Position numbers and translations under genes: made by a program
The notes under the pieces: model-generated
Told to the model about the DNA's origin: nothing
Seen by the model: only the letters and a program-made list of their open reading frames with translations
Database searches by the model: none
Source of the DNA: an uncultured Actinomycetes bacterium
Lineage (GTDB): Bacteria; Actinomycetota; Thermoleophilia; RBG-16-64-13
DNA: 64,000 nt
Direction of reading: 5' to 3'
Assembly: GCA_963806155.1 (NCBI GenBank)
Contig: CAWDXC010000009.1
Span: 198,520-262,519 of the forward strand
Shown here: positions 11,664 to 59,446 of the stretch, piece after piece
Numbering within the stretch: the stretch's first letter is position 1
Layout of the letters: the number at the start of each line of letters is the position of its first letter

Positions 11664-13094
11664 CTAGTAGTTCATGGGCTGTAGTTCGACGGCCGGAACC
11701 ATGGGGGCCAGGCCGTTGCTCACCACGACCACCTCGTAGGGCCACTTGGTCCCCTTCACCCATTGCTGCCCGGTCATGAGGGGCTTGACGATGTTCGGAT
11801 GGGGGCGGGTGCCGGTAGGCGACATAGGATTCTGATCGAGCGGAGCGGTCATGTCGATGGGACCGAGAATCGTCTCCATCTTGGTGGTCGTGATGGCTTC
11901 AAGGATGGATTCCTTGTCATCCGGATCCTTGGTGCGACTAAGCACGTCGATGGCCCAGCTGATCTTGGCGTGGCCACCGATCGCCCCCGTCCATTCGCTG
12001 CTGGTGGTCTTTTCGTAGTCATCTGCCAGTTCCTGACAGGTCATTCCCGTAACCGAATCAGTGAAGGGGAAGGTGGGGTGCCACGAGCCGTCCGGACCGA
12101 TCAGTCCATACACGCTCGGCCCGATGGCCTCCGCGGCCTGGGGAAAGCCTAGGGCAAGGGCTTGACTGGCGACGGGCGGCTTGAAGCCTTGCTGAAGGCT
12201 CTGCTTCCAGAAGTTGGTGAAGTCGGGAGTGGTGCTGGCACCGGTGAGCACCTCGCAGCCCTCCTTCTTGAACAGGCTTATCTGGGCGGTGAAGTCCTCA
12301 CTGCCCGGGGTGAAGAGTCCAGGTGCCACGATCGTGTATCCGGCAGCTTCGAGGAAGGGGGGAGCACCGGTGGTCTCGTCGAGCCAGGCCATGCCGTCGG
12401 CGTTGTTCATGGCGAGGAAGGCGACCTTCTTGTTGGTCGGGGTCCTATCGAAGATATCGACCATGGAGGCGCAGACCTGCTCCAGGCCGAGAAGTTGGCC
12501 GAATGTCCACTTGAAGGGCTTCTCGAAGCTACCTCCCCGACCGAACACGAAAGCCGACCAGATGTTGAAGCAGCTGAGGAAAGGGGTCTCCAGAGCCTCA
12601 GCCTGGTCGGCCGCCGGGTTCACCGTATCAGGCGAGCCCGCAGCCAGAAGGAGGTCCACCTTGTCGTTGGTGATCATGTCACCCGCCACCTGGGCCGCCC
12701 GGTTGGAGTCGGATTGGGTGTCGCGGAAGATGATGCTGACGGGGTGATTCTTGCCGTCGCCGAGCACCAGCCCGTCCGCAAGTGTCTTATTCGTAAGGTC
12801 GGTCGACCACTTGTCCGCGATGCCGAAGACGGCGAGCATTCCCGTTTGAGGAGAGACCACGCCTATCTTCATCTCTCGGCCGGCCTCGGCAGCCGTGCTC
12901 ACCGTGGTAGTACTCGCCCCGGTCGTCGAGGTAGTGGAGGCCGCCGTCGTCGCAACCGCGGCGGTAGTGGTGGTCTCCTTCTCCTCGCCACAGGCCGCGA
13001 CCAACCCACCAAGGCCAGCGCTCACCCCTATTGTGGCGCCGGCTAGGCCGGCGATCTTGAGGAACTCCCGGCGGCTTACTGATTCCGTTTCCAT
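11664..13094 (-). CDS. ABC transporter substrate-binding lipoprotein, PBP1 (Liv/aromatic-acid binding) family, paralog 1
   Basis: ORF 11664..13142; ATG 13094 with GGGGGAG SD; Tat/lipoprotein N-term SRREFLKIAGLAGATIGVSAGLGGLVAACG plus Thr-rich linker; conserved ...VELQPMNY C-terminus shared with paralogs. Confidence 0.85.
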   Translation of the reverse strand: METESVSRREFLKIAGLAGATIGVSAGLGGLVAACGEEKETTTTAAVATTAASTTSTTGASTTTVSTAAEAGREMKIGVVSPQTGMLAVFGIADKWSTDLTNKTLADGLVLGDGKNHPVSIIFRDTQSDSNRAAQVAGDMITNDKVDLLLAAGSPDTVNPAADQAEALETPFLSCFNIWSAFVFGRGGSFEKPFKWTFGQLLGLEQVCASMVDIFDRTPTNKKVAFLAMNNADGMAWLDETTGAPPFLEAAGYTIVAPGLFTPGSEDFTAQISLFKKEGCEVLTGASTTPDFTNFWKQSLQQGFKPPVASQALALGFPQAAEAIGPSVYGLIGPDGSWHPTFPFTDSVTGMTCQELADDYEKTTSSEWTGAIGGHAKISWAIDVLSRTKDPDDKESILEAITTTKMETILGPIDMTAPLDQNPMSPTGTRPHPNIVKPLMTGQQWVKGTKWPYEVVVVSNGLAPMVPAVELQPMNY

Positions 13095-13144
13095 GACTCC
13101 CCCTTGGTGCTGTGCTTGTAGACCCGCTGCTCCGAAGAGCACTT

Positions 13145-13162
13145 GGTAAACGATCGTTTACC
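13145..13162. promoter_or_regulatory. perfect 18-bp palindrome GGTAAACGATCGTTTACC, candidate TetR operator in SBP promoter
   Basis: perfect inverted repeat read directly from sequence; 50 bp upstream of SBP start, 70 bp downstream of TetR gene. Confidence 0.5.
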
Positions 13163-13231
13163 ACGCTAGCAAGACCAAGCTAGCAGAACCAAGGAAGCTG
13201 GTCAATGTAATGCGAGTCTTGCTTCGTGCCG

Positions 13232-15354: not shown

Positions 15355-16842
15355 ATGTCGGACAGCCCACACAGTCATCAATCGGAAGATACGGAGCCGG
15401 CAACCCTTGTCGGCAAGGGCGTGAGTCGACGTGAGTTTCTCAAGACGGCTGGTATCGCAGGCGCGACTATCGGCATCGGCGGCGGTCTGGGGAGCCTTCT
15501 TGCCGCATGCGGCGAAGAGGAGACTACCACGACGGCTGCTGCCGAAAGCACCACGACCACAGCCGCAGCCACCACAACCACAGCCGCGGCCAGCACGACT
15601 ACTGTCAGCGCTGAAGCGGAAATGGGACGCGAACTCAAGATCGGTTTTGCCTCGCCGCAGACCGGCGTCCTGGCCTTCTTCGGCGTCCCCGACAACTACT
15701 GCGTCGACCGAGCGACGGAGGCCATTGGCGACGGCCTCGTGTGCGCCGATGGTAAGAAACACCCGGTCACCATCCTTGTTCGCGACACCCAGTCAGACAC
15801 GAACCGCGCCGCCCAGGTGGCCGGGGATATGATCAACAACGACAAGGTGGACCTAGTGACGGCTGCCTCCACCTCCGACGTCGTTGTCCCCGTGGCGGAC
15901 CAGTGCGAAGCGGCCGGCATGCCCTGCATCAGCACCGACATCCCCTGGAACAACTACATATTTGGGCGGGGCGCTACTCTCGATAAGCCGTTTACCTGGA
16001 CCTACAACGTCTTCTGCGGCATGGATGATTTCTATGCCAACTACATCTATTTCTGGAACCAGGTGGAGACCAACAAGAAGGTGGCTTTCCTCAATTCCAA
16101 CGACGCTATGGGTCAAGCCACGCAAATGTCGGCCGAGGCGTATTGCCCGCCCGCCGGTTACACCCTGGTTTCTGCCCCCCTCTACAACGTGGGCACCGAG
16201 GACTTCTCCTCGTCCATTGCTCTCTTCAAGAAAGAGGGCTGCGAGATCATGCACGGGAGCGCCAATCCCGGGGACTTCGCCAACTTCTGGAACCAGTGCC
16301 TGCAACAGTCTTTCCACCCCAAGACCGCCGCCTGGTTTGTGGCTCTGATGTTCCCCGAGGGGGCCGCTGCTCTAGGCGACCTCGTCATCAATCAGAACGC
16401 CGATCTGATCTGGCACAATTCGTTCCCCTTCACCTCCCCTCTTCTCGGTGATACCTGTCAGCAGTTTGCCGACGAGTACGAAAAGAGGACGGGCGCCAAG
16501 TGGAACGTGGCGCTGTGCCACGGCATACTGTTCGACTGGGCAACAGATGTCCTCATGAGGACGGCGAACCTCGACGACAAGAACTCGGTCCTTGAGGCTG
16601 CAAAGACGACGAAGATGGAGACTATCGGCGGCGCGATCGACTTCACGGCTGCCGTTGATACGTCCACCACCGCTCACGGACCACGGCGGATCAGCCAGAA
16701 CTGCTATACGACCCCCCTTGCCATCGCTCAGTGGCGGAAAGGCACAGGCGCGTTCCCTTACGATCAGGTGGTCGTCGGCAACACAGCTGCTCCGATGGTC
16801 ACGATTCAAGACAAAGTGCAACCGCTCACGTACAGCAATTGA
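15355..16842 (+). CDS. ABC transporter substrate-binding lipoprotein, PBP1 family, paralog 2
   Basis: AGGAGAGGGGAA SD; SRREFLKTAGIAGATIGIGGGLGSLLAACG lipobox, Thr/Ala linker. Confidence 0.85.
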   Translation: MSDSPHSHQSEDTEPATLVGKGVSRREFLKTAGIAGATIGIGGGLGSLLAACGEEETTTTAAAESTTTTAAATTTTAAASTTTVSAEAEMGRELKIGFASPQTGVLAFFGVPDNYCVDRATEAIGDGLVCADGKKHPVTILVRDTQSDTNRAAQVAGDMINNDKVDLVTAASTSDVVVPVADQCEAAGMPCISTDIPWNNYIFGRGATLDKPFTWTYNVFCGMDDFYANYIYFWNQVETNKKVAFLNSNDAMGQATQMSAEAYCPPAGYTLVSAPLYNVGTEDFSSSIALFKKEGCEIMHGSANPGDFANFWNQCLQQSFHPKTAAWFVALMFPEGAAALGDLVINQNADLIWHNSFPFTSPLLGDTCQQFADEYEKRTGAKWNVALCHGILFDWATDVLMRTANLDDKNSVLEAAKTTKMETIGGAIDFTAAVDTSTTAHGPRRISQNCYTTPLAIAQWRKGTGAFPYDQVVVGNTAAPMVTIQDKVQPLTYSN

Positions 16843-17555: not shown

Positions 17556-17802
17556 GTTTCATTCGTGCACTGGAGTTGGAGTTACCCCAGTTCCGTGGAC
17601 ACCTGAGAGCTTTCAAATCTAGGTCACGGCGCAGGTCTGACTCCCGCATGTCTCGGATGATGTGGCGGTCAGTTGGCCTGACCAACACGCTCCCCATCGG
17701 CATCACCCAGATCGTCCCCGAGTATCGGACTTCCTGGAGGTCGTCGCGCCAGCCCGCCTCGTCCCGGAGATGCTCCAGTTCCGCGGTTCCGTTGATGATG
17801 TT

Positions 17803-30541: not shown

Positions 30542-31344
30542 GCAAGGTTTTCGTGTTTGATACCGCCATCTGCAACGGCTGCTACTGCTGCCAGATCGCC
30601 TGCAAAGACGAGCACTGCGGCAACGACTGGACTCCCTACGCCAAGCCGCAGCCCGATACGGGCCAGTTCTGGCTCAAGCTCTCCGAGCATGTGCGCGGGA
30701 CCGTGCCCAAGGTGAAGATGCACTACCTGGCCTCGCTCTGCGCCCACTGCGACGAGGCCCCGTGCATGGCCGCCTGCTCGGTGGAAGGAGCCATCTACAA
30801 GCGCGCGGACGGGTTGGTCATCATCGATCCAGAGAGGTGCACAGGCTGCATGAGCTGCCTGGACGCGTGCCCCAGCGATTCCATCTACTTCAACGAAAAC
30901 CTCACCATCGCTCAGAAGTGCACGGGCTGCGCCCATCTGCTCGACGCCGGCTGGACCGAGCCCCGCTGCGTGGACGCCTGCCCGACTCTGGCCCTGAAGT
31001 ACATGGACGAGGATGAGGCAAAGGAACTGATCGCCGGGGCCGAGACCAGGAATCCGGCCCGAGACGAGCCTCGCCTCTACTACCTGAACATCCCCAAGAA
31101 GTTCGTCGGCGGAACGGTCTACGATCCCGTCGCGAAAGAGGTCGTGAAAGGAGCGACCTGTACCCTTACTGGTAACGGCAGCACCTGGACTGAGGCCACC
31201 GACGGCTTCGGGGACTTCTGGTTCGAGGGCCTCGTGGCGGGCGCATACTCTCTGGAGATAGCGGCCGCGGGCTTCCCGACCAAGCGATTCCCGGAGATAG
31301 CCGTCGAGAATGACGTCAACCTGGGAGACATCCCTTTGGCTTGA
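30538..31344 (+). CDS. 4Fe-4S ferredoxin-type beta subunit with C-terminal carboxypeptidase-regulatory/TTR-like beta-sandwich domain (beta1)
   Basis: CNGCYCCQIACKDEHCG, CxxCxxxPC, CTGCMSCLDACP, CTGCAHLLD...RCVDACP cluster motifs; C-term GTVYDP...GDFWFEGL...Y.LE; translationally coupled to alpha1. Confidence 0.8.
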   Translation: MSKVFVFDTAICNGCYCCQIACKDEHCGNDWTPYAKPQPDTGQFWLKLSEHVRGTVPKVKMHYLASLCAHCDEAPCMAACSVEGAIYKRADGLVIIDPERCTGCMSCLDACPSDSIYFNENLTIAQKCTGCAHLLDAGWTEPRCVDACPTLALKYMDEDEAKELIAGAETRNPARDEPRLYYLNIPKKFVGGTVYDPVAKEVVKGATCTLTGNGSTWTEATDGFGDFWFEGLVAGAYSLEIAAAGFPTKRFPEIAVENDVNLGDIPLA

Positions 31345-41530: not shown

Positions 41531-44179
41531 ATGACAGCGGATGAATCCAAGAGGCAGGTTCGCATCTCCGACAAGACGGTCCTCAAGTGTCTCGCCCAGT
41601 GTTCCTTCGCCCAGCAAGGCGAGTTGGCGTCTGTTGACGTGAAGGACGGGAAGATCGTCCGCATCCGTCCCCATCGCCACACCGAGCGGTACACGGTAGA
41701 AGAGCTGGGGCAGTATGAGCTAAACAAGGACGGCGTGAAGTACAAGACGCCACTCAAGGGTCTTCTGGCTCCCTACCAGATCGCCTACAAGAAGCGGGTC
41801 TACTCCCCCAACCGGATACTCTATCCACTCAAAAGGGTGGACTGGGATCCCAAAGGGGAACGCAACCCGCAGAACCGGGGTAAGAGCAAGTACGTGCGGA
41901 TCAGTTGGGATGAGGCCACGACCATCATCGCCGACGAGATCAAACGCATCCACAAGGAATACGGACCCCTTGGCATTCTTGCCCACGGAGACGGACACGG
42001 GGAGACCAAGACGATCCACGGACCTCACGCTGTCCAGATGGATCTGCTGCGTCTGATGGGTGGCTACACTCAGGCCATCAGAAATGCCGACAGCTGGGAG
42101 GGCTGGTACTGGGGCGCCAAGCATGTCTGGGGCAACGGGGAGAACGGCCTCCTACTACCCGCCGACAACATCATGAACGATGTGACCCAGAACACGGACA
42201 TGATCATCCACATCGGCGCCGATCTCGAAACGACGCCGTGGGGCTTCGCCGGCCAATTCCCCAGCACGGTCATCTACTACTGGCAGAAGTTAGGTAAGAA
42301 GCAGGTGTTCGTCTCTCCCGATCTCAACTATTCCGGAGCCGTGCACGCGAGCAAGTGGATCCCCATCCTGCCCAACACCGATGCCGCGCTGCATCTGGCC
42401 ATCGCCTACGTGTGGATGACCGAAGGCACCTACGACAAGGATTACGTAGCTGACCATGTGGTCGGCTTCGACAAGTTCGAGGACTATGTGCTGGGAAGAG
42501 AAGACGGGGTAGCTAAGACCCCGGAGTGGGCTTCGGCTAAGACAGGCGTGCCCGAGTGGACCATCAAAGCTCTTGCCCGGGAGTGGGCGGCTCAGCCCAC
42601 CACGGTCATGCACTTCTACGGCGGCTCCTACATCCGCGGTCCTTACTCGCACGAGCCCGCCCGCCTGGAAGCGTGCCTGCTCGGCATGCAAGGGTTGGGC
42701 AAACCGGGCTGCCACCAGTACTTCAAGATGGGGGGCGATCACCACTGGATGTGCGATACGCCCCGCCCGGTGAGAACAATCGATGACGTGCGGTTTGGGG
42801 TCGCGGGGAACGTCTGGGCTGGTCAGGGGCAGGTCTATATTTCATCGAAGCAGATCATTCCCAAGACGCAGGTCAGCCAGGCCATCCTCAATCCACCCAC
42901 CAGCACGATGGGGAGCACCATCCTTATGGGGCCGCTTGAAGACCAGTTCAAACGCTACGACTACCCCATCCCCGCGGAAGAGGGCGGCACCGAGATCCAC
43001 ATGATCTGGATGGACAACCCCTGCCGCACCACCTGCTGGAACGACGGCTTCCTGACTGTGGAAGCCTTCCGGAGCCCCAAGATCGAGACTCTGGTTGTGC
43101 AACACCCCTGGCTGGAAAACGACACCATCCTGGCCGACATCATCCTGCCTATCAACACCAAGCTGGAAGAAGAAGACATCGCTCGGTTCGCTCAAAACGT
43201 GGCGGTTCACGGGTGCGCTATTGAAGACCAAGCCATAGAGCCTGTCGGGGAGTCTTTGAGCGATTATGAAGCTGTGGGTGAGGTGGCTAAGAAACTGGGT
43301 CTCTATGAGGAGTTCACCCGCGGGAAGACCGTCCGGGAAAAGATCAGACTGGGCTTCCAGGACATGGCCATCGACGATCTGATCAGCTGGGAGGAGTTCT
43401 CCGACAAGAGGTACTACATCGTCCCCACCGACCCCGAATGGGAGAAGGTTCCCGCTGGTCTGAGAGAGTTCTACGAGGATCCGGAAGCGCATCCCTTGGA
43501 GACCCCCAGCGGCAAGCTCGAGTTCTACTCACAGCGGCTGGCGGACAACTTCCCCGACGACACCGAAAGAGGGCCCCTTCCGAAGTGGGTCGAAAGCAGC
43601 GTCACCCACGATGAGAGGGTCTCCAGCCCCCGGGCGAAGAAGTATCCGCTCCTTCTCATGAGCAACCACGGAAGATGGAGGACCCACGCCCAGAACGACG
43701 ACATCACCTGGCAACGGGAGATCATGACCTGCAAGGTCAGGGGCTGGGACGGCTACATGTACGAACCCATCTGGATCAATCCCAAAGACGCCGAAGCCCG
43801 AGGTATCAAGGACGGGGACATCGTCAAGCTCTTCAACGAACGAGGCACGGTGCTCTGCGGGGCTCTGGTGTGGGAACGGATCATGCCGGGAGCGGTCTCG
43901 AGCGACCACGGCTCCCGGGCGGACCTGATCTGCACCGACGGCCCCGAGGGCTACCTCGATAGAGGCGGGGCCAACAACCTGATCTCGCCAATAAACGGAA
44001 CGTCCCAGAACTGCTGGGGCATGGCCACCAGCGGCTATCTGGTGGACGTACAGAAGGTGAGCATGGCCGAAATGGAGGAGTGGAAGAAGAAATATCCGGC
44101 GGCCTTTGCGAGGAAGTACGACCCGGCTTCCGGTCTCAGGTTCGAGGCGTGGGTGCTGGAGGAAGGAGAGGCCCGATGA
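41531..44179 (+). CDS. molybdopterin oxidoreductase large subunit, transhydroxylase-like (alpha2; ~85% identical to alpha1)
   Basis: 882 aa; GAGGAGAGG SD; same motifs as alpha1. Confidence 0.8.
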   Translation: MTADESKRQVRISDKTVLKCLAQCSFAQQGELASVDVKDGKIVRIRPHRHTERYTVEELGQYELNKDGVKYKTPLKGLLAPYQIAYKKRVYSPNRILYPLKRVDWDPKGERNPQNRGKSKYVRISWDEATTIIADEIKRIHKEYGPLGILAHGDGHGETKTIHGPHAVQMDLLRLMGGYTQAIRNADSWEGWYWGAKHVWGNGENGLLLPADNIMNDVTQNTDMIIHIGADLETTPWGFAGQFPSTVIYYWQKLGKKQVFVSPDLNYSGAVHASKWIPILPNTDAALHLAIAYVWMTEGTYDKDYVADHVVGFDKFEDYVLGREDGVAKTPEWASAKTGVPEWTIKALAREWAAQPTTVMHFYGGSYIRGPYSHEPARLEACLLGMQGLGKPGCHQYFKMGGDHHWMCDTPRPVRTIDDVRFGVAGNVWAGQGQVYISSKQIIPKTQVSQAILNPPTSTMGSTILMGPLEDQFKRYDYPIPAEEGGTEIHMIWMDNPCRTTCWNDGFLTVEAFRSPKIETLVVQHPWLENDTILADIILPINTKLEEEDIARFAQNVAVHGCAIEDQAIEPVGESLSDYEAVGEVAKKLGLYEEFTRGKTVREKIRLGFQDMAIDDLISWEEFSDKRYYIVPTDPEWEKVPAGLREFYEDPEAHPLETPSGKLEFYSQRLADNFPDDTERGPLPKWVESSVTHDERVSSPRAKKYPLLLMSNHGRWRTHAQNDDITWQREIMTCKVRGWDGYMYEPIWINPKDAEARGIKDGDIVKLFNERGTVLCGALVWERIMPGAVSSDHGSRADLICTDGPEGYLDRGGANNLISPINGTSQNCWGMATSGYLVDVQKVSMAEMEEWKKKYPAAFARKYDPASGLRFEAWVLEEGEAR

Positions 44180-45018
44180 GCAAGGTCTTCATCTTTGACA
44201 CATCCATCTGTAATGGGTGCTACTGCTGCCAGCTCGCCTGCAAGGACGAGCACTGCGGGAACGACTGGACTCCCTACGCCAAACCGCAGCCCGACACCGG
44301 TCAGTTCTGGCTCAAGCTTTCCGAGCATGTGCGGGGTACGGTCCCCAAGGTGAAGGTGCACTACCTGGCGGCTCTGTGTAACCACTGTGACCAGGCCGCC
44401 TGCCTGGCCGCCTGCCAGGTAGAAGGGACCCTCTACAAGAGGGACGACGGTCTGGTCATCATCGACCCCGAGAAATGCACGGGCTGCACCAATTGCGTGA
44501 GCGCCTGCCCCTACCACGTCATCTATATGAACGAGAACCTGAACATCGCCCAGAAGTGCACCGGATGTGCTCATCTCTTGGACAACGGCTGGACGGAGCC
44601 CCGGTGTGTAGACGCGTGCCCCACCGGAGCGCTACAGTTCATGGAGGAAGCGGAGGCTCAGGGGCCAGTCCAGAGCTCGGAGGTGCTCCACCCGGAATAC
44701 GAGCAGAAGCCCCGGGTCTACTACCTGAACATCCCCAAGAAGTTCATCGCGGGTACCGTCTACGATCCTGTGAAGAAAGAGGTGGTGATCGGAGCTAGTT
44801 GCACCCTCACGAGCAACGGCAGCACCTGGACCACCACCACCGACGGCTTCGGGGACTTCTGGTTCGAGGGGCTCGAGATTGGCAGCTATTCCCTGGAGAT
44901 CGCGGCCCTGGGATTCCCCGCCAAGACCTTCGAGGACATTAGTACTGCGATGGACGTGAACCTGGGAGACATAGCCGTGGCCAAAGACAGCAGCAGCCAA
45001 GCCGGAGGTCGCCAATGA
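44176..45018 (+). CDS. 4Fe-4S ferredoxin beta subunit with C-terminal beta-sandwich domain (beta2)
   Basis: ATGA overlap with alpha2; same Cys clusters as beta1. Confidence 0.8.
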   Translation: MSKVFIFDTSICNGCYCCQLACKDEHCGNDWTPYAKPQPDTGQFWLKLSEHVRGTVPKVKVHYLAALCNHCDQAACLAACQVEGTLYKRDDGLVIIDPEKCTGCTNCVSACPYHVIYMNENLNIAQKCTGCAHLLDNGWTEPRCVDACPTGALQFMEEAEAQGPVQSSEVLHPEYEQKPRVYYLNIPKKFIAGTVYDPVKKEVVIGASCTLTSNGSTWTTTTDGFGDFWFEGLEIGSYSLEIAALGFPAKTFEDISTAMDVNLGDIAVAKDSSSQAGGRQ

Positions 45019-45115: not shown

Positions 45116-46594
45116 ATGTCGACCGACTTGGAAGACAACAATGCAGGCATCAGTAGGAAGGCCGGCGTCAGCCGGCGCGAATTCTTGAAGATTGCCGGCG
45201 CCGCCGGCGCAACAGTAGGCTTGGGCGCAGGATTGGGCGGGCTGGTGGCCGCCTGTGGAGAGGAAGCCGAGACGACCACTACGGCCGGTGTTACCACCAC
45301 GGCCGGTGTAACCACCACAGCCGGTGTCACCACCACAGCCGCCCCTACCACAGTCAGTAGCGCCGCCGAAGTCGGGCGTGAGGTCAAACTCGGTTTCATC
45401 ACCCCGATTACCGGCGGCCTGGCTCCTTTCGGAGCGACCGACCAGTACTGCGTCAAGCGGGCGCAGGCGGTGATCGGTGACGGGCTGGTAAGTGGCGACG
45501 GTCTGAAACACCCCGTCACCATCAAGCTCCAGGATAGTCAGTCGGACCCGAACCGGGCGGCCCAGGTCGCAGGCGACCTCATCATGAACGACAAGATAGA
45601 CCTTATGCTCGTGGCCTCGACGCCCGATAACGTTGTCCCGGTGGCCGGGACGTGTGAGGCCATGGGGATGCCGTGCATCTCCTTCGACTGCCCCTGGCAG
45701 GGCTTCTTCGCCCCCCGGACCAACGGCGACTATTCAATTGTGTTCAACTGGACCTATCACGTCTTCTTCGGGGCGGAAGAGGGGACCGCCATCATGCTGG
45801 ACCTTCTGAGCCAGTTGCCGACCAACAAGATCGTGGCCATGATGTATCCCAACGACGCCGACGGCAACTCCCTTCACCCTATCCATGCTGCGGCGTTCGA
45901 GGCGGCGGGCTTTACCCTCGTTGATGCCAGCGGTTTCCCGGTCGGCCTGGAGGATTTCACGGAGCAGATCAGCATGTTCAAGAAGGCGGGCGCCGAACAA
46001 GGGCACGGCGTGATGCCTCCGGCGGACTTCACCAACTTCTGGAAACAGTCGATCCAGCAGGGCTGGACGCCGAAGATGTCCATGTGGGCCAAGTCGCTGC
46101 TCTTCCCGGAGTCCCTCGAAGCTCTGGGGCCCATCGGCAACAATCTCTGCTGCGACCAGTGGTGGGGACCGGACTGGCCCTTCACGTCTACCGTCCTTGG
46201 ACAGACTTGCCGACAATTCACAGACGACTTCGAGGCCGAAGCGAAGCGGCAGTGGACCCAGCCCTTGGCCCACATGATGCTCTTCGAGTGGGCCATCGAC
46301 TTGCTCCAGCGGACGGTCAACGTGGACGACACGAACGCTATCATGGCGGCGATCAAGACCACGAAGCTGGACACTATCGCCGGCCCGGTCGATTTCTCGG
46401 CTCCGGTCGAACCGGTCGGCCCACCGTGGGCCGTTGGTCCGAGGCACATCGTGGAGAACGTCTACAAGGTGGGCCTCTGCGCCGGCCAGTGGCGCATGGG
46501 CGGCAAGTACATGTTCGACCTGATCAGCGTCAGCAATGGCGGGCACCCCCTGATCCCGGTGCAGGACAAGGCGCTGCCGTATACCGAGGCCTGA
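45116..46594 (+). CDS. ABC transporter substrate-binding lipoprotein, PBP1 family, paralog 4
   Basis: lipobox LVAACG; 15-bp tandem repeats encode (TTTAGV)x3 linker; ~65% identical to paralog 3. Confidence 0.85.
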   Translation: MSTDLEDNNAGISRKAGVSRREFLKIAGAAGATVGLGAGLGGLVAACGEEAETTTTAGVTTTAGVTTTAGVTTTAAPTTVSSAAEVGREVKLGFITPITGGLAPFGATDQYCVKRAQAVIGDGLVSGDGLKHPVTIKLQDSQSDPNRAAQVAGDLIMNDKIDLMLVASTPDNVVPVAGTCEAMGMPCISFDCPWQGFFAPRTNGDYSIVFNWTYHVFFGAEEGTAIMLDLLSQLPTNKIVAMMYPNDADGNSLHPIHAAAFEAAGFTLVDASGFPVGLEDFTEQISMFKKAGAEQGHGVMPPADFTNFWKQSIQQGWTPKMSMWAKSLLFPESLEALGPIGNNLCCDQWWGPDWPFTSTVLGQTCRQFTDDFEAEAKRQWTQPLAHMMLFEWAIDLLQRTVNVDDTNAIMAAIKTTKLDTIAGPVDFSAPVEPVGPPWAVGPRHIVENVYKVGLCAGQWRMGGKYMFDLISVSNGGHPLIPVQDKALPYTEA

Positions 46595-51037: not shown

Positions 51038-53551
51038 GTGACAGAGCAGGTCTTCATGAACGCGACGATCGCCGGCCCGGTCTCCGTCTACGTGAGAGAC
51101 GGCAAGATCGTGAGGATCCGGCCGCTGCAGGTCGATGGACAAGACCTGAAGCCCTGGACGATCGAAGACTCCCGAGGCGCGAAGTATTCTCCCCCCAAGA
51201 AGCTGAAGCTCGGGCCCTATGTGATGGCCGCTCGAACGCAGCTCTATTCCGACGACCGGCTTCTTCGCCCCATGAAACGGGTCGACTTCGATCCTAAGGG
51301 GGAAAGACACCCGGAGAACCGCGGCAAGTCCGGATACGAGCCGATAAGCTGGGACGAGGCTCTGGACCTAGTGGCCGGCGAGATGGAGAGAATACGGACC
51401 GAGCACGGTCCGGCGGCGATCGCGGCCCTCGACCAGGACCACCATAACTGGGGCATCGTGGGCTACCGGTTTGGGCCTTATTTCCGGTTCTTCAACACCA
51501 TCGGGTTCACAGAGGTGCTGCACAATCCGGACAGCTGGGAAGGCTGGCACTGGGGCACTCCCCATGTGTACGGCTACTGGTGGCAACTAGGCGTGCCCGA
51601 GCAGTTCGATCTGCTCGAGGATACGCTGAAGCACGCCGAGAACATCATCTACTGGTCGAACGACCCGGACTACACCAGGGCCGCCTACAACGGCATGGAG
51701 TCTGCCATCTGGTTCGACTGGATGCGCGACGCCGGCAAGCAGCAGATATTCATCGATCCCTTCTGCAACTACACCGCCTCCAAGCTGGCCGACAAATGGA
51801 TCGCCCCCCGGCCGGGCACCGACTCGGCCTTGGCTCTGGCCATCGCTTGGGTCTGGATCGACGAAGACAGCTACGACGCTCAGTACGTGGCCGAGAAGAC
51901 AGTCGGCTTCGAAGAGTTCAAACGATACGTGACGGGCGAAGAAGACGGGGTGCCCAAGACCCCCGCGTGGGCGGCCGACATAACAGGCGTTCCCGCCCGC
52001 ACTCTTGAAGCTCTGGCCCACGAGTGGGCCGCCAAAAGGACGACGATCGCAGGAGCCGGCATGGGCGGCGCGTGCCGCACCGCCTACGGGCACGAATACC
52101 CCCGGTTGGTGGTTTTGCTGCAGGCGATGCAGGGGCTAGGCAAGCCGGGCGTCAATCTGTGGGGCAACGCCACGGCCGCGCCGGCGAACTACAACGTCCT
52201 CTTCCCCGGATATGCCGATCTGGACGCCATGATGAGCTTCTCGAGCGCCGCACGGAAGAAGGCTATCAACCCCGTGGAGCAGCGCCTCTATCGCCTCATG
52301 CTGGCCGACTCCATCCTGGATCCGCCCGTCAAGTGGATGGGCGAGGGGTTCTGCGGCCAACAACTGGAGCAGCAGTTCGCCCGCTTCGAGTACCCCATGC
52401 CCGGCTACCCGGAAGTGAGGATGCTCTACCGCTACGGATCCGCCTCGCTCGGAACGATGACCGAGGGCAATAAGCTCGTGAAGATGTTCCAGAGCCCCAA
52501 GCTGGATATGGTGGTAGTGCAGGACTGCTGGTGGAACACCGAGACCAGGTTCGCGGACGTGATCCTGCCTGCGTGCACCAACTTCGAGCGCAACGACATC
52601 GCCGAGTGGGGAGAAGCCGGCGGGTACCTCAAATGGTGCTCGACCGGATCCAACTACCGCATCGTCACCTACCAGCAGAAATGCATCGAGCCTCTGGGCG
52701 AATCGAGATCGGATTACTCGATCTTCTCGGAGCTCGCCAAACGACTGGGGGTGTGGGAGGACTTCTCCGACGGAGGTCGCTTGGAAGATGATTGGATCAA
52801 GGCCTACTTCGACGTGAGCGACCTGCCCAAGTACATCTCCTGGGAGGAGTTCCTCAAGAAGGGGTACCACGTCATCCCGGTGCCCGAGCCGTATGAGTCC
52901 ACGCCAGCGTTCCGCTGGTTCTACGAAGGCAGGGACTGCGACACCCCCGACATGATGAACCCAAACAAGGGCACCGAGCGGGCCGGTCAGCTGGCTACCC
53001 CCAGTGGGAAGATCGAGTTCGTGTCCGGCAGCCTGACCAAATTCACGCCCGACGACGAAGAGCGGCCGCCCGTGCCTCACTACATCCCCAGTTGGGAAGG
53101 TCCCGAGTCCGAGTTGGCCAAAAGGTATCCGTTACAGCTGATAACCCCCCACCCCCGCTACTCCTTCCACACCCACTTCGACAAGAAGGGCTCCTGGATC
53201 AACGACATCCCCGGTCATCGCCGTCTCGTCAACGGCTACTACTACTGGACGGTCAGGATCAGCCCCTCCGATGCAGCGGAGCGCGGGATCAAGGATGGAG
53301 ATGTCGTGCGACTCTTCAATGACCGCGGGTCGGTCCTCGGAGCGGCGACGGTGACCGAGAGGATCAAGTCCGGGGTGATCCACAGCTACTGCTCCTGCGG
53401 CAGGTACGACCCCGCGGAGCCCGGGAAGGCCTACTCCCTCGATCGGGGCGGCTGCGTCAACCTGCTCACCTCCGATAGGCTCATGTCCAAGAACGCACCG
53501 GGGATGGCACCCAACTCCTGCCTTGTCGAGATCGAAAGATGGGAGGCCTGA
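51038..53551 (+). CDS. molybdopterin oxidoreductase large subunit, closest to pyrogallol transhydroxylase AthL-type (alpha3)
   Basis: 837 aa; GTG start with GAAGGGAG SD; motifs GPVSVYVRDGKIVRIRP, YEPISWDEA, HNPDSWEGWHWG, FDLLEDTLKHAE, ACTNFERNDI, KCIEPLGES, DRGGCVNLLTSDR. Confidence 0.8.
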   Translation: MTEQVFMNATIAGPVSVYVRDGKIVRIRPLQVDGQDLKPWTIEDSRGAKYSPPKKLKLGPYVMAARTQLYSDDRLLRPMKRVDFDPKGERHPENRGKSGYEPISWDEALDLVAGEMERIRTEHGPAAIAALDQDHHNWGIVGYRFGPYFRFFNTIGFTEVLHNPDSWEGWHWGTPHVYGYWWQLGVPEQFDLLEDTLKHAENIIYWSNDPDYTRAAYNGMESAIWFDWMRDAGKQQIFIDPFCNYTASKLADKWIAPRPGTDSALALAIAWVWIDEDSYDAQYVAEKTVGFEEFKRYVTGEEDGVPKTPAWAADITGVPARTLEALAHEWAAKRTTIAGAGMGGACRTAYGHEYPRLVVLLQAMQGLGKPGVNLWGNATAAPANYNVLFPGYADLDAMMSFSSAARKKAINPVEQRLYRLMLADSILDPPVKWMGEGFCGQQLEQQFARFEYPMPGYPEVRMLYRYGSASLGTMTEGNKLVKMFQSPKLDMVVVQDCWWNTETRFADVILPACTNFERNDIAEWGEAGGYLKWCSTGSNYRIVTYQQKCIEPLGESRSDYSIFSELAKRLGVWEDFSDGGRLEDDWIKAYFDVSDLPKYISWEEFLKKGYHVIPVPEPYESTPAFRWFYEGRDCDTPDMMNPNKGTERAGQLATPSGKIEFVSGSLTKFTPDDEERPPVPHYIPSWEGPESELAKRYPLQLITPHPRYSFHTHFDKKGSWINDIPGHRRLVNGYYYWTVRISPSDAAERGIKDGDVVRLFNDRGSVLGAATVTERIKSGVIHSYCSCGRYDPAEPGKAYSLDRGGCVNLLTSDRLMSKNAPGMAPNSCLVEIERWEA

Positions 53552-53553
53552 CT

Positions 53554-54384
53554 ATGTCGCGCTATGCCCTGCTCATAGACATGGAGAAATGCAACGGCTG
53601 CTACGCCTGCTTCATGGCCTGTCGCGACGAGCACTGCGGGAACGATCACCTGCCTTACTCGGCGGCCCAGCCCTATTCGGGCCACTTCTGGATGCGCATC
53701 ATCGAACGCGAACGCGGGTCGTATCCCAGGGTCAAGGCCGCCTACATCAAGGTCCCCTGCATGCACTGCGATGACGCTCCCTGTGTCACCCAGTATCCGG
53801 ACCAAGTCTACAAGCGCCCGGACGGCATCGTCATCATCGATCCGGTCAAAGCCAAAGGGGCGAAGGAGATCCTGGATTCCTGCCCCTACCGGGTGATCTT
53901 CTGGAACGAGGAGACCGATCTGCCGCAGAAATGCACCATGTGCGCGCATCTTCTCGACGAGGGTTGGGAAGAGCCCCGGTGCGTGGAAGTATGTCCCACC
54001 AAGGCCCTTCTCTTCGGCGACCTGGACGACCTGGAGAGCGAGGTAGCCAAACGTCTAGCTGAAGGTGAGGCTGAGGTCTTCCACCCCGAATACGGCCTCA
54101 AGGGGAGCGTCCGGTACCTGGGCCTGCCCAAACGGTTCATCGCCGGCAGCCTGGTCTTCGGCGATACCGACAAATGTGCGGGCGATGTCACCGTGACCCT
54201 GGCCGGCGACGGGGAGAAGAGGCAGGCCACGAGCAACGGCTTCGGGGATTTCGAGTTCGAGGGAGTGGACAAGGACAAGGAATACATCCTGGAGGTCAAG
54301 CACCCAGGCTACCGGGACAGGCAGCTCGCCGTGTACACACAGATCGACAAATACCTAGGCGACATAGTGTTGGAGAAGATCTAG
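53554..54384 (+). CDS. 4Fe-4S ferredoxin beta subunit with C-terminal beta-sandwich domain (beta3)
   Basis: GGGAGG SD; CNGCYACFMACRDEHCG etc.; 3 nt downstream of alpha3. Confidence 0.8.
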   Translation: MSRYALLIDMEKCNGCYACFMACRDEHCGNDHLPYSAAQPYSGHFWMRIIERERGSYPRVKAAYIKVPCMHCDDAPCVTQYPDQVYKRPDGIVIIDPVKAKGAKEILDSCPYRVIFWNEETDLPQKCTMCAHLLDEGWEEPRCVEVCPTKALLFGDLDDLESEVAKRLAEGEAEVFHPEYGLKGSVRYLGLPKRFIAGSLVFGDTDKCAGDVTVTLAGDGEKRQATSNGFGDFEFEGVDKDKEYILEVKHPGYRDRQLAVYTQIDKYLGDIVLEKI

Positions 54385-54431: not shown

Positions 54432-56945
54432 GTGGTGGAAGAGGTCCTGACCCAGTGCACTTCAGGCGGAGCGGTCCAGGTCCATGTCGAGGATGGGGTG
54501 ATCACCAAGATCCGGCCGCTCGTCTTCGACGAGACAGATGCCCCTGGGTGGACGCTCGAGGCCAGAGGTAGAGAGTTCAGTCCTCCGCGCAAGACAACGG
54601 TGATGCCGTACGTCGTCGCGGAGAGGAGCCGCATCTACTCGGAGAACAGGATCAAGTATCCCTGCAAGCGAGTGGATTTCGATCCCAAGGGGGAACGGAA
54701 CCCCCAGAACAGAGGGAAGTCCGCCTACGAGCGCATAAGCTGGGACGAAGCGTTCGACATAGTCGCGGGCGAGATGCAGCGAGTGCGCGAGATCTACGGG
54801 CCGGCCGCCATAGCTGCCTCCACCGGATCGCACCACAACTGGGGTCTGCTGTTCTACAAGATGGGACCCTTCGGCCGCTTCTTCAACATGCTCGGCTACA
54901 CCGAGATCGTGGACAACCCGGACAGCTGGGAGGGTTGGCACTGGGGCGCCATCCACACCTGGGGCTACTGGTGGCGGCTCGGGGTCTCGGACAACTACGA
55001 CATGCTCGAGGAGGCCCTCAAGAACACCGACCAGGTGGTCATGTGGTCGGTGGACCCGAATACAACCACCGGCTATCCGGGCCAGGATTCGCTCCTGTGG
55101 CGGATATGGTTGAAACAACTGGGCATCAAGCTGATCTTCATCGATCCCTGGTGCAACTTCACGGCCGGTATGCTGGCGGACAAATGGTTCGCCCCGCGGC
55201 CGGGCACGGACGCGGCTCTGGCTCAGGCCATCGCCTACGTGTGGATCAAAGAGGGCTCCTACGACAAGTGGTTCGTCGAGAACCGGACCGTGGGCTTCCC
55301 GGAATTCGAGAAGCACATCCTGGGCGAGCAAGACGGGATAGCCAAGACGCCGGAGTGGGCCGCGGAGATAACCGGCATCCCGGCCCGCGACATACAGGCG
55401 CTCGCTCGCAGTTGGGCCTCGAAGCGGACCATGCTTGGGTGTGGGGCTATGGTCGGGCTCGGGGGCGCGTGCCGGGGAGCGTACGCGACCGAATGGGCCC
55501 GGATGATGGTGCTCCTCATCTCGATGCAGGGCTTGGGCAAACCGGGTGTCAACGTCTGGGGCGGGTGCGGAATGGGCCAGCCCGCCGACTACTCCTTCCG
55601 GTTCCCCGGCTATTCCTCAGCCGGTTGGGACGCCTTCAACCTCGTCTCCGAGAAGAGAGCGATCAATAACGTGTCCCAGAAGATCTGCCGTCTGCTCCTG
55701 CCCGAGGCCATCCTCGCTCCACCGGTGGAGTGGGATGGGGAGGGCTTCTGCGGGTTTGCGCTCGACCAGCAGTTCACTCACCACACCTACCCCGAACCCG
55801 GGACCACCGAGATCAAGCTGCTCTACCGGCACGGGGGCTCCTACATCTCCACCATGACCGACACCAGCCGGTTCGTCCGGATGTATCAGAGTCCCAAGCT
55901 CGAGTGCGTGGTCAGCCAGGATTGCCACTGGCAGAGTGAGACCAAGTTCGCCGACGTGATCCTGCCGGCCAGCACCAATTTCGAGCAGGAGGACATCTGT
56001 GAGTGGGGGAATCCCGGTGGATACGCGGAAAACAAGGGTGGAGAGAACTTCCGCGTCGTCATCAGTCAGAAGAAGTGCATCGAGCCCCTCTGGGAATCGA
56101 AGCCGGACTGGGACATCTACTGCGAACTGGCCAAACGCTTGGGCTTCCTCGAGGACTATACAGAGGGCAATACGCGGGAGGATTGGATCAGAAAGCTCTT
56201 CGACTCCACCTCGCTGCCGGAGCACGTGAGCTACGAGGACTTCAAGAAGAAGGGCTACTTCGTGGTGCCTCCGCCTTCGGGCGACTACAAGCGCACCGTC
56301 TCCAACCGCTGGTATTACGAGGGCCGCAAGTGCGACGTCCCCGACTCGTTCAATCCTACGATCAGGGGCGAGGGCACGGACAAGCTGGGCACCTACAGCG
56401 GCAAGATCGAGTTCGTCTCGCAGAGTCTGCTGGAGCACTTCCCGGATGACGAAGAACGGCCGCCGCTGCCCCGGTACATCCCCAGCTGGGAAGGGTACGA
56501 CAGCGCGCTCGCCAAGAAGTACCCGCTGCAGCTCCTCACGACACACGCCCGCTTCTCGTTCCATACGCAATACGACAACAAGACCCCGTGGCTGGACGAG
56601 ATCCCGGTGCACCGCGTCATCAAGGACGGGTACGCTTATCTTCCGGTCCGGATCCATCCTTCGGATGCCGCGCCGCGCAACATCCGCCACGGAGACATCG
56701 TGAAGCTCTTCAACGACAGGGGTTCCGTGCTGTGCATCGCTCAACTCACCGAGCGGGTCAAGCCCGGCGTCCTTCACACCTACCAGGCGGGAGCCAAGTA
56801 CGATCCGCTCGAGCCGGGCAAGGCCGGAAGCACCGACAAGGGTGGCTGCGTCAACATACTGACCCCCGGGCGGATGATCTCGAAGCACGCGCCAGGCATG
56901 GCCAACAACTCCTGCCTGGTGGAAGTGGCGAGGAGTGATGTCTAG
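54432..56945 (+). CDS. molybdopterin oxidoreductase large subunit, transhydroxylase-like (alpha4, ~50% identical to alpha3)
   Basis: 837 aa; AAGGAG SD; only 47 bp after beta3, so probably co-transcribed. Confidence 0.8.
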   Translation: MVEEVLTQCTSGGAVQVHVEDGVITKIRPLVFDETDAPGWTLEARGREFSPPRKTTVMPYVVAERSRIYSENRIKYPCKRVDFDPKGERNPQNRGKSAYERISWDEAFDIVAGEMQRVREIYGPAAIAASTGSHHNWGLLFYKMGPFGRFFNMLGYTEIVDNPDSWEGWHWGAIHTWGYWWRLGVSDNYDMLEEALKNTDQVVMWSVDPNTTTGYPGQDSLLWRIWLKQLGIKLIFIDPWCNFTAGMLADKWFAPRPGTDAALAQAIAYVWIKEGSYDKWFVENRTVGFPEFEKHILGEQDGIAKTPEWAAEITGIPARDIQALARSWASKRTMLGCGAMVGLGGACRGAYATEWARMMVLLISMQGLGKPGVNVWGGCGMGQPADYSFRFPGYSSAGWDAFNLVSEKRAINNVSQKICRLLLPEAILAPPVEWDGEGFCGFALDQQFTHHTYPEPGTTEIKLLYRHGGSYISTMTDTSRFVRMYQSPKLECVVSQDCHWQSETKFADVILPASTNFEQEDICEWGNPGGYAENKGGENFRVVISQKKCIEPLWESKPDWDIYCELAKRLGFLEDYTEGNTREDWIRKLFDSTSLPEHVSYEDFKKKGYFVVPPPSGDYKRTVSNRWYYEGRKCDVPDSFNPTIRGEGTDKLGTYSGKIEFVSQSLLEHFPDDEERPPLPRYIPSWEGYDSALAKKYPLQLLTTHARFSFHTQYDNKTPWLDEIPVHRVIKDGYAYLPVRIHPSDAAPRNIRHGDIVKLFNDRGSVLCIAQLTERVKPGVLHTYQAGAKYDPLEPGKAGSTDKGGCVNILTPGRMISKHAPGMANNSCLVEVARSDV

Positions 56946-57776
56946 ATGACCAGATACGGCATGGTAGTCGATATCGTCAAGTGCAGTGGCTGTTACAACT
57001 GCTTTCTAGCCTGCAAGGACGAGCACTGCGGCCATGATCAGCCGGGGTACGCCGCCCCTCAGCCGATGACCGGACACTCCTGGATGCGGCTGGTGGAGAC
57101 TGAGCGAGGCTCGTATCCAAAGGTCAAGGTCGCCTACACGGCCGTCCCCTGCATGCACTGCCAGGAAGCCACCTGTCTCGAGAAGGCCGAAGGCGGAGCG
57201 GTCTATCGCCGGGCCGACGGCATCGTCATGATCGACCCGGTGAAAGCGAAAGGGCAGAAGCAGCTGGTCTCTTCCTGCCCCTACCGGGTCATCTACTGGA
57301 ACGAAGAGCTAGACCTGCCGCAGAAGTGCACGTTCTGTGCCCATCTCCTCGATGCCGGCTGGAAAGAGCCCCGGTGCGTGGAGCTATGTCCCGCCGGCGC
57401 TCTGACCTTCGGGGATCTGGACGATCCCGAGAGCGAAGTGGCGAAATTGGTCTCCGGGCAGAGGACGGAGGCCCTACATCCGGAGTTCGGGCTGAAGGAG
57501 AACGTCGTCTACGTCAACCTGCCCAAGAAGTTCATAGCCGGGACCGTGGCGTTCGGGGATACGGACGAATGCGCCCCCGGGGTGACCGTCACCGTGGGCA
57601 TTGACGGCCGGCAGCAGACGGCCATGACGGACGAATTCGGCGATTTCGAGTTCGAAGGTCTGGCCGAGGGGCAGGACTACACCGTGATCCTTGCCGCGGA
57701 CGGATACCGTTCCCAGGAATTGAACGTGAAGACACTGAGGGACATCTACCTGGGAGTCATAACGCTCGAGAAGTGA
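56946..57776 (+). CDS. 4Fe-4S ferredoxin beta subunit with C-terminal beta-sandwich domain (beta4)
   Basis: ATG directly after alpha4 TAG; same Cys pattern. Confidence 0.8.
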   Translation: MTRYGMVVDIVKCSGCYNCFLACKDEHCGHDQPGYAAPQPMTGHSWMRLVETERGSYPKVKVAYTAVPCMHCQEATCLEKAEGGAVYRRADGIVMIDPVKAKGQKQLVSSCPYRVIYWNEELDLPQKCTFCAHLLDAGWKEPRCVELCPAGALTFGDLDDPESEVAKLVSGQRTEALHPEFGLKENVVYVNLPKKFIAGTVAFGDTDECAPGVTVTVGIDGRQQTAMTDEFGDFEFEGLAEGQDYTVILAADGYRSQELNVKTLRDIYLGVITLEK

Positions 57777-57969
57777 TAACGAGCTGATGGTGGCCCTCCC
57801 CCAGCCAGGCCCGGCCAAGGGTCGGGTGTGGCGGCGGGAGGGCCCCACCATCCGGTTTGAACCGCCCTGCCTCCCTCGTCCGCCAAGCCAGAAGCCGGCC
57901 GCCCCTCCGAACGCTCGAAGAGTTCCGGAGGGGCGGCCGCTGGGGGGGCGCTGGAAACCCGGTTTCCTG

Positions 57970-59446
57970 TTAGTAGGTAAGCGGCTGAAGAGTCCCATCC
58001 AGCACGACGATATCGGGGTCGGTGCTGAAGACGAGCAGCTTGTCGATGGGCCATTTGCCCTCTGTCGCCTTGACCCACTGGCCGCAGGCCTGCGGCGGGC
58101 TGCAGCCGTTGATGAACGGATGATGGGTCATGTCCTTCACCGGCGCCGTGAAGTCGATCTGACCTAGACTCGTGTCCAGCTTCGTCGCACCGATGGCGGA
58201 CGGCGATCCCCGCCTTGTCGTCGACGTTGGTGACGCGTTTGAACACGTCGGCCGCCCATTCGAAGAGGACGAGGATGATCACGGCCTCGCTATACTGGCT
58301 GCCGCTGAAGGCTTCGTACTCGTCCGCGATCTGCTGACAGTTCATCCCCGTCAAAGAGTCGACGAACTTCTGGCGCGGAGTCCAGGTGCCGGCGCTGGAG
58401 AGGTTGTAGCCGATATCGCCCATGGAGAGCACGCCCTCCGGGAAGATCAGGCCTTTGTGACCGATAGCCACCACCGGCTGGAATGCCTGCTGATGGGACT
58501 GCGTCCAGAAGTTGGTGAAATCGGGCGTGAGCATGACCGCGAGCAACAGCTCACATCCCGCCTTCTTGATCGCGGTGATCTGGGCTGTGTAGTCCTCAGC
58601 CCCCGGGGTGTAGAGATCGGTCATCACCACCTGATAACCGGCCTGCTCGAGGATGGGCGGCCCCCATTGGGCCCAGTTGTTGCCGTCCACATCGTTGGCG
58701 AGCACGAGGCCGACGATCTTGTTGCTCGGGACCTGCGGGAGAAGCCCGGTGTAGTTGACCGTGGTGAGCACGTCGTCGAAGGCATAGGTATAGGTCCATT
58801 TGAAGCCCTCTGCCGGCATCTTCCTACCCACGGTGAACGCGTGCACCTCGGTCCAGTTGGAGATCAACGGGCATCCCATCGATTCGGCGACATCACCGGC
58901 CGGGTTCACGGTATCGGGGGTGACCGCCGCCATGACGAGGTCGACCTTGGTGTTCTGGATGAGGTCGCCGGTGACCTGCGCCGCCCGGTTCGAATCGGAC
59001 TGGGTATCCACCAGACTGACCTCAAAGGAGTGCATCATCTTGTCGCCGAGGACGAGGCCCTCACCGATAGCATCCTCGAAATGCTTCTGCGCCCATTTGC
59101 CCGCGGCTGCGAACGGCGCCAGCGGACCGGTGATGGGTACGACATAGCCCAGCTTGATCGGCCGGCCGACCTCTGGTCCGGCGCTCACGGTGGTCGTGGA
59201 CGCGGGGGCCGTAGTGGTAGTGGACGCAGGAGCCGTGGTGGTGGTGCTCGCCGGAGCGGTCGTGGTTGTTACTTCCTCTTCGCCGCAGGATGCGAGGAAG
59301 GTGCCCAACCCTCCGCCGATCCCGATAGCGCCGCCCGCCACGGCGGCAAGCCTGAGAAACTCGCGGCGACTCACCGGTCTCGTGCCCGTAGGCTCTTCGA
59401 TTCCTTCGCGGTCGTGTTGGTCGTCAGATCTGTCGCGCTCGTTCAC
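57970..59446 (-). pseudogene. ABC transporter substrate-binding lipoprotein, PBP1 family, paralog 5, frameshift near 58215
   Basis: N-terminal 400 aa in ORF 57746..59446 frame; conserved C-terminus (...KLDTSLGQIDFTAPV...LQPLTY) found in another frame ending at TAA 57970; 21-bp tandem repeats encode (TTTAPAS)x3. Confidence 0.65.

Follow-up and report, generated by a model that had tools for sequence, protein, structure and literature searches.

How does a bacterium make use of five related solute-binding proteins (SBPs) when none of their genes lies next to genes for the membrane and ATPase components of a transporter? This question is raised by a 64 kb stretch of DNA (GC content about 62%; hereafter the window) from an uncultured Actinomycetes bacterium (Thermoleophilia; RBG-16-64-13), located at positions 198,520 to 262,519 of contig CAWDXC010000009.1 (assembly GCA_963806155.1). 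Our analysis suggests that the five proteins (SBP1 to SBP5; Table 1) probably feed one common ATP-binding cassette (ABC) translocator of the Liv/HAAT type that is encoded elsewhere in the genome. The use of a distant ABC translocator by orphan SBPs is a well-known principle, and in this respect the finding is ordinary; it is a known kind of mechanism, found here in an uncharacterised SBP subfamily of an ecologically interesting pathway.

A preliminary description of the window had listed five paralogous binding-protein genes, and all five open reading frames (ORFs) are indeed present. Their products score between 91.9 and 121.2 bits against the Pfam model PF13458 (Peripla_BP_6; gathering cut-off 31.7 bits), and they are true paralogs, with 45-65% identity to SBP4 and more than 100 invariant alignment columns. 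None of the curated subfamilies of such proteins (LivJ/K, UrtA and similar) fits them, the best NCBIfam scores being 19-29 bits against cut-offs of about 477-495 bits. SBP1 probably starts at the ATG codon at position 13094 rather than at the GTG codon at position 13142. The frameshift reported for SBP5 was confirmed as a single frame change near position 58200: the frame is lost after "...VTNVDDKAGIA", and the other frame then runs intact to the conserved "...QPLTY" and a stop codon at 57970-57972. This looks like the effect of one extra base.

The N-termini of the five proteins had been described as sharing an RREFLK motif, an LxACG lipobox and a Thr-rich linker. All of them carry an export signal, a lipobox and a linker, but the motifs are not literally identical: the twin-arginine motif reads VSRREFLK in SBP1, SBP2 and SBP4, VSRRDFLK in SBP3 and VSRREFLR in SBP5, and the lipobox is L(V/L)AACG in four of the proteins and LASCG in SBP5. 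Each aligned N-terminus also has a hydrophobic stretch rich in Gly and Ala, and the features of export and lipid anchoring (the twin-arginine motif, the hydrophobic h-region and the lipobox cysteine) are invariant across the alignment. Matches to Pfam TAT_signal and TIGR01409 back the assignment to the twin-arginine translocation (Tat) pathway. A Thr/Ala-rich linker of about 35 amino acids follows the lipobox in all five proteins. Two further predicted lipoproteins of the window, one of unknown type (15-1076, plus strand) and one a glucose/sorbosone dehydrogenase of the pyrroloquinoline quinone type (2872-4155, minus strand), also possess a lipobox followed by a Ser/Thr-rich linker; the linker is hence a general trait of the anchored proteins of this organism and is not specific to the SBPs.

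Three types of search bear out the statement that no cognate permease or ATPase accompanies these genes. Pfam scans of all sizeable ORFs of the window detected ABC_tran only in the region 1101-2891, and a Liv-type permease or ATPase is not present in the window even as a relic. A tblastn search of the window with LivG, LivF, LivH and LivM of a relative gave no permease match even at E ≤ 10. In a hydropathy scan, no ORF with at least two transmembrane-like segments was found outside 1101-2891, save for antisense artefacts of the SBP signal peptides. The only ABC genes of the window are frameshifted and of the ABC-2 exporter type, as had been described: the ATPase gene (1101-2070) matches ABC_tran at residues 43-160 only, its second half lies in another frame and has a weak match to DrrA1-3_C (E = 1.4e-4), and the hydrophobic region that follows is split between frames. 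A frameshifted DrrA-like ATPase fits an exporter of this type. The preliminary description had also considered that a complete LivHMGF operon might immediately flank one of the five genes just outside the window; there is no place for such an operon, since the genes on either side of each of the five are themselves contained in the window.

Family members and livGFHM operons in relatives

The SBP family comprises more than 1,300 proteins at E ≤ 1e-10 and is concentrated in uncultured Actinomycetota, namely in metagenome-assembled genomes (MAGs) of Thermoleophilia and Gaiellales from soil and peat. The best protein and genome matches to SBP4 are only 63-65% identical to it. A haloarchaeal origin, to which the combination of Tat signal and lipobox and the GC content had pointed, was rejected, as the relatives are without exception Actinomycetota MAGs. 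We kept the 80 top-ranked loci; 78 of these, analysed with flanks of up to 10 kb, contained 91 family genes from 43 uncultured Actinomycetota assemblies. Twenty-seven of the 91 genes are positioned directly upstream of livGFHM and two more such arrangements are cut by contig ends, while about 62 genes are orphans. A gene for a transhydroxylase-like alpha subunit is present within 10 kb of 48 family genes. Individual assemblies possess between zero and two transporter-linked genes and up to eight orphans, and both kinds occur together in ten assemblies; by gene counts, the relatives thus have more family SBP genes than translocator operons. In a representative transporter-linked arrangement (loci L003 and L010), transhydroxylase-like genes precede an SBP gene whose product has 58% identity to SBP4, and two ABC_tran and two BPD_transp_2 genes directly follow it.

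A search with the LivM protein of locus L003 revealed, on contig CAVZIK010000006.1 (3.56 Mb) of a relative, an ortholog of 81% identity. The corresponding locus (L082; 2832739-2853794) has the gene order MoA-MoB-IclR-MoA-MoB-LivG-LivF-LivH-LivM-IclR-TatA-GntR-PolA, in which MoA and MoB denote the alpha and beta subunits of transhydroxylase-like molybdenum (Mo) enzymes and the GntR gene is of the GntR/PBP_like type. It shares synteny with L003 (livM, IclR, further genes, GntR and polA). The interval ahead of livG measures only 339 bp, and no binding-protein gene is found within 10 kb on either side of this operon. At least four family SBP genes are located elsewhere on the contig, at about 0.26, 0.96 and 1.38 Mb, none of them with livGFHM nearby. 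A translocator operon that lacks an SBP gene, combined with dispersed orphan SBP genes on one contig, is the arrangement predicted if several SBPs share one transporter. The LivM orthologs are 81-95% identical across MAGs, while the SBPs of the same MAGs are 45-65% identical to SBP4; the two values fit a conserved core with diversifying receptors. Sharing of a transporter encoded elsewhere, one of the two possibilities raised in the preliminary description, is thus supported by the relatives indirectly but consistently, through sister clades located upstream of livGFHM, through the orphan counts and through the SBP-less operon on the 3.56 Mb contig.

These data also bear on the alternative that each of the five SBPs possesses its own dedicated ABC translocator elsewhere in the genome and that nothing is shared. 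Soil Actinomycetota often carry several livHMGF operons, which would allow for this. We nevertheless consider it unlikely, given that none of the 43 assemblies has more than two translocator-adjacent SBPs while orphans number up to eight, that an SBP-less operon coexists with at least four unaccompanied SBPs on the 3.56 Mb contig, and that LivM is so much more strongly conserved than the SBPs.

Two of the orphan loci on CAVZIK010000006.1 have distinctive surroundings. In the first (L001; 962946-984421), the genes that adjoin the SBP gene encode a chalcone-isomerase-like protein (Chalcone_N), an ene-reductase of the old yellow enzyme type, a short-chain dehydrogenase/reductase and a haloacid dehalogenase-type hydrolase, a gene set that looks like one for flavonoid degradation. 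In the second (L083; 1381802-1403292), the orphan is flanked on both sides by genes for major facilitator superfamily transporters, and a second family SBP gene is located 8.5 kb away.

Catabolic modules, sensing and candidate ligands

The window is a dense island for the anaerobic metabolism of hydroxylated aromatics, and each SBP gene forms part of a catabolic module with transhydroxylase-like cytoplasmic enzymes at its centre, a setting that is absent from the preliminary description. Four complete alpha/beta gene pairs resemble pyrogallol-phloroglucinol transhydroxylase (Table 1), and a partial pair is present at the right edge (63461-64000, minus strand), which makes the window unusually dense in these rare Mo enzymes.

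Table 1. Coordinates of the binding-protein genes, the transhydroxylase-like gene pairs and the ABC genes in the window.
Feature	Coordinates	Strand	Description
SBP1	11664..13094	-	Tat-lipoprotein, Peripla_BP_6 (PF13458 E = 1e-34); ORF 11664-13142
SBP2	15355..16842	+	Tat-lipoprotein, Peripla_BP_6 (Pfam E = 4.6e-34); TIGR01409 Tat signal
SBP3	32625..34121	+	Tat-lipoprotein, Peripla_BP_6 (Pfam E = 3.1e-29)
SBP4	45116..46594	+	Tat-lipoprotein, Peripla_BP_6 (Pfam E = 7.4e-33); Pfam TAT_signal match
SBP5	57970..59446	-	Peripla_BP_6 paralog (Pfam E = 8.3e-26, residues 96-383); one frameshift at about 58200; ORF 57746-59446
Transhydroxylase-like Mo pair	27839..31344	+	Alpha 27839-30541; beta about 30540-31344
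Transhydroxylase-like Mo pair	41531..45018	+	Directly upstream of SBP4; MoB 44080-45018; alpha against PDB 4v4c_A E = 1.2e-117
Transhydroxylase-like Mo pair	51038..54384	+	Pfam AhtL-like_1st
Transhydroxylase-like Mo pair	54432..57776	+	Pfam AhtL-like_1st
ABC ATPase and hydrophobic permease region	1101..2891	+	Frameshifted; sole ABC genes in the window; not Liv-type

The two pairs that were compared with the Protein Data Bank (PDB), those starting at 41531 and 54432, are full-length homologs of the Pelobacter transhydroxylase; for the latter pair, the alpha subunit matches 4v4c_A with E = 7e-253 and the beta subunit 4v4c_B with E = 8.5e-66. The alpha subunit encoded at 27839 matches Pfam Molybdopterin and Molydop_binding, has a sub-threshold match to AhtL-like_1st (20.9 bits against a cut-off of 27) and carries no Tat signal, while its beta partner contains Fer4_11 and CarboxypepD_reg. 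The likeness to the enzyme of Pelobacter acidigallici (PDB 4V4C) thus extends to full-length alpha and beta matches, to the Fer4_11 plus CarboxypepD_reg composition of the beta subunits and to the cytoplasmic location. The window differs in that it has four to five divergent paralogous pairs, with the 41531 alpha subunit reaching only E = 1e-117. Because the alpha subunits lack a Tat signal, the chemistry is cytoplasmic, and for the same reason we rejected the possibility that the Mo enzymes are extracytoplasmic and served directly by the SBPs.

Distances of 97-206 bp separate the SBP genes from catabolic or regulator genes of the same orientation. SBP1 has a TetR gene (13232-13885) and a gene for a CocE/NonD S15 hydrolase (9682-11457) as its neighbours, all three on the minus strand. 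SBP2 is divergent from an IclR gene (14195-15070), with two ORFs without a family match downstream. SBP3 is situated downstream of a MoA-MoB pair (27839-31344) and of a MerR-TetR regulator gene (31348-32439). Within a long run of catabolic genes on one strand, SBP4 is separated by 97 bp from the preceding MoB gene and by 168 bp from the following genes for the beta and alpha subunits of an electron-transfer flavoprotein (ETF). SBP5 is found downstream of a MerR-TetR regulator gene (59553-60932). At least eight cytoplasmic one-component regulators of the IclR, TetR and MerR-TetR types adjoin the modules.

Since both the enzymes and the regulators are cytoplasmic, the substrates must be imported, and the one-component type of the regulators implies that sensing of these substrates follows their import. 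This bears on the second possibility raised in the preliminary description, a re-use of the SBPs as sensors. In that case they would play no part in transport but, once loaded with ligand, would assist membrane sensors (histidine kinases, chemoreceptors or Ser/Thr kinases) as co-receptors. Many SBP families, among them type-I periplasmic binding proteins (PBPs), are documented to take part in signalling (PMC8050422). The five genes are orphans, in line with such a role, and at locus L001 a PadR gene, a "Sensor"-domain gene and a PAS-HisKA kinase gene are found within 8 kb. We regard this explanation as very improbable, and the window lends it no support. The hydropathy scan revealed no membrane sensor (kinase or chemoreceptor) beside the SBP genes and no other membrane-bound signalling protein anywhere in the 64 kb, the many regulators next to the modules are cytoplasmic, import would be needed anyway for the cytoplasmic enzymes, and the sister clades of the five proteins are canonical transporter partners.

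For the ligand class we turned to the predicted fold. An AlphaFold2 model of SBP4 (mean pLDDT of 85; above 90 over residues 81-490) predicts the two-lobe fold of type-I PBPs, with a disordered tether at the N-terminus and an additional C-terminal segment rich in beta structure. The latter, a feature of the family, is a confidently predicted extension of about 60 residues (residues ~417-490) that reaches past the end of the Peripla_BP_6 model and is lacking in SBPs of the size of LivJ. Foldseek retrieved LivJ/LivK-type SBPs with E = 1e-18 to 1e-14 and target-normalised TM-scores of up to 0.88, and the top fold matches in the PDB were the vanillate/4-hydroxybenzoate binders 4EYG and 4EY3 of Rhodopseudomonas palustris (E = 1.5e-18; target-normalised TM-score of 0.81). 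These two were also among the sole matches, all of them marginal, in a sequence search of the PDB (E = 1e-4; 17% identity). In R. palustris, SBPs assigned to COG0683 ("branched-chain" SBPs) were shown in many cases to have aromatic acids, and not amino acids, as their ligands (Giuliani et al., PMC3223731). The five proteins share with the aromatic-acid binders of that organism (4EYG/4EY3; RPA0668, RPA0985, CouP/RPA1789) the Pfam family and the best fold matches, and 4EY3 was named by its depositors after a twin-arginine signal, similar to the Tat motif found here. They differ from these proteobacterial periplasmic proteins, which are not lipid-anchored, and the identity amounts to 13-18%. The link to aromatic ligands drawn in the preliminary description is hence reasonable, but the fold matches on which it can be based do not discriminate.

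Maintenance of the orphan genes and a proposed model for uptake

In a neighbor-joining tree of the family, all but two of the transporter-linked genes belong to one of two clades, the remaining two being stragglers. SBP1 to SBP5 are all placed in clades that consist of orphans only and have conserved synteny. SBP3 and SBP4 cluster with the genes of loci L004 and L041, SBP2 with one of the copies in L047, and SBP1 with the other L047 copy and with L077, while SBP5 stands alone. The orthologs of SBP1 in L077 and L047 are 81% identical at the amino acid level (ratio of non-synonymous to synonymous substitutions, dN/dS, of 0.11 against L077), the ortholog of SBP2 in L047 is 87% identical (dN/dS of 0.11), and that of SBP3 in L004 is 95% identical (dN/dS of 0.10). 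Values this low reflect purifying selection, so that the orphans are stable and functional and not in decay. That the genes are decaying remnants or assembly errors left after the loss of a transporter, and have no current function, might be read from the frameshift in SBP5 and from several other frameshifted genes in the window; yet this is the least credible explanation and can practically be set aside, given that four of the five genes are intact, that orthologs are kept as orphans under a dN/dS of about 0.1 with conserved synteny, that SBP5 apart from its single frame change is intact to the conserved C-terminus, and that split genes are common in related long-read MAGs (many occur in L003 and L084), so that a sequencing error may account for the frame change in SBP5.

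The locus closest to the window, L004 (21 kb; MAG MFD00032.bin.1.257), also sheds light on the origin of the orphans. It is collinear with 22580-41168 of the window at 90-93% nucleotide identity. The segment 41168-46775, which comprises MoA, MoB and SBP4, is missing from this otherwise collinear locus, and it is 73-83% identical at the nucleotide level to the SBP3 module (27875-34070). At least one orphan therefore arose through duplication of an enzyme-plus-SBP module without transporter genes.

From these observations we propose the following scheme. SBP1 to SBP5 are extracytoplasmic, lipid-anchored and Tat-exported members of a divergent Peripla_BP_6 subfamily, each of which would bind its own hydroxylated aromatic compound on the outside of the cell. 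The ligand-loaded proteins would dock onto a common LivG-LivF-LivH-LivM translocator encoded elsewhere, and the imported compounds would be processed by modules that each consist of a regulator, a transhydroxylase-like cytoplasmic enzyme and accessory flavoprotein, Fe-S, ETF or hydrolase genes. New orphans would come into being when enzyme-plus-SBP modules are duplicated without transporter genes.

Several points weigh against this scheme. The presence of a Liv-type translocator in the source organism is read from its relatives, and the sharing of a single translocator is deduced from gene counts. MAG CAVQME, the closest relative (90-93% nucleotide identity), is represented among the 80 retained loci by eight orphans, with none of these loci being transporter-linked, and the LivM search placed no match on its five known contigs; the transporter of this MAG may have no SBP gene, may have ranked lower, may be missing from the bin or may not exist. 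Assignment of a gene to the orphans depends on the 10 kb flanks and on contig ends, and the tree is a simple neighbor-joining tree without support values. As to the ligands, phenolics are suggested by the gene neighbourhood and by non-discriminating fold matches: LivK, LivJ, UrtA and GABA receptors score almost as well as the R. palustris proteins, with identities of only 13-18%.

As a tentative extension of the shared-translocator scheme, uptake in the uncultured Actinomycetota of soil and peat could have a hub-and-spoke organisation. One highly conserved LivGFHM, encoded beside transhydroxylase genes and sometimes itself without an SBP gene, might be served by five to eight or more interchangeable, module-specific SBPs, which would multiply through module duplication and set the range of breakdown products of plant polyphenols that can be taken up anaerobically.

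A translocator used by more than one binding protein is familiar from the HAAT family of Escherichia coli, in which LivJ and LivK both serve LivHMGF. The five proteins resemble LivJ and LivK in their type-I PBP fold and in their PF13458 domain, under which the latter two are both listed (PMC8050422), and the relatives mirror LivHMGF in carrying two ATPase and two BPD_transp_2 genes directly downstream of a family member. The differences are considerable, however. Identity to LivJ/LivK is below 20%, the proteins described here are Tat-exported lipoproteins with a Thr/Ala-rich tether and the beta-rich C-terminal extension of about 60 amino acids, their genes are unlinked from a translocator and embedded in aromatic catabolism modules, and their ligands are probably phenolics and not amino acids.

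Well-known examples of orphan SBPs are OppA1-5 of Borrelia, AliA/AliB/AmiA of pneumococci and the Bug/TTT proteins of Bordetella. The family studied here shares with these systems the presence of several paralogous SBPs, few or no adjacent translocator genes, and more orphans than translocators per genome. It differs from them in that each orphan belongs to a distinct catabolic module, in that a translocator operon without an SBP gene is found in at least one relative, and in that sharing is here proposed from gene arrangement. The separation of orphan SBPs from their transporter has been described as common (Giuliani et al., PMC3223731, citing Thomas 2010, "Homes for the orphans").

In a study of peat, Chersky-299 and RBG-16-64-13 were named as actinobacterial genera that actively degrade catechin, and pgthAB expression was reported (PMC12203004); the word "transporter" is absent from that study. 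MAGs with isolate names containing Chersky_299 are among our SBP matches, and others containing RBG_16_64_13 are among the LivM matches. Anaerobic turnover of polyphenols in soil and peat is relevant to the storage of carbon and the emission of methane, and its uptake side is essentially undescribed for the uncultured Actinomycetota involved. If the SBPs are indeed the receptors, their ligands would reveal which phenolics each transhydroxylase-like module handles, and binding assays on the soluble proteins would offer a tractable route to the substrates of a large uncharacterised family of Mo enzymes.

Further features of the window

Three regulators of the window combine a MerR_1 and a TetR_N helix-turn-helix domain in one protein (26324-27259, minus strand; 31348-32439, plus strand; 59553-60932, minus strand), an uncommon architecture that recurs beside the catabolic modules. 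Duplicated GlcD/E/F-like sets (FAD_binding_4 plus CCG Fe-S proteins), ETF alpha/beta together with a CCG Fe-S oxidoreductase, and aldehyde:ferredoxin oxidoreductase are encoded within 21768-26105 and 34217-40171 (both minus strand), 46763-50717 (plus strand) and 60500-62410 (minus strand), and these are probably the electron-transfer accessories of the modules. Pfam gave no match for the ORFs 4179-4946, 16899-17555, 17662-18321, 48833-49849 and 62444-63199.

Apart from SBP5, frameshifts affect the ABC ATPase gene (at about 1590), the ABC-2 permease gene (2060-2890), a URO-D-like gene (5117-6195) and a FAD_binding_4 gene (37613-38897), the last of which is intact in L004. The frameshifts of the window, that of SBP5 included, may be sequencing errors and not marks of pseudogenes. 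Two CocE/NonD hydrolase genes (Peptidase_S15 plus PepX_C; 6322-8064 and 9682-11457, both on the minus strand) flank an IclR gene, the second of them directly downstream of SBP1; their products are possible esterases for phenolic esters.

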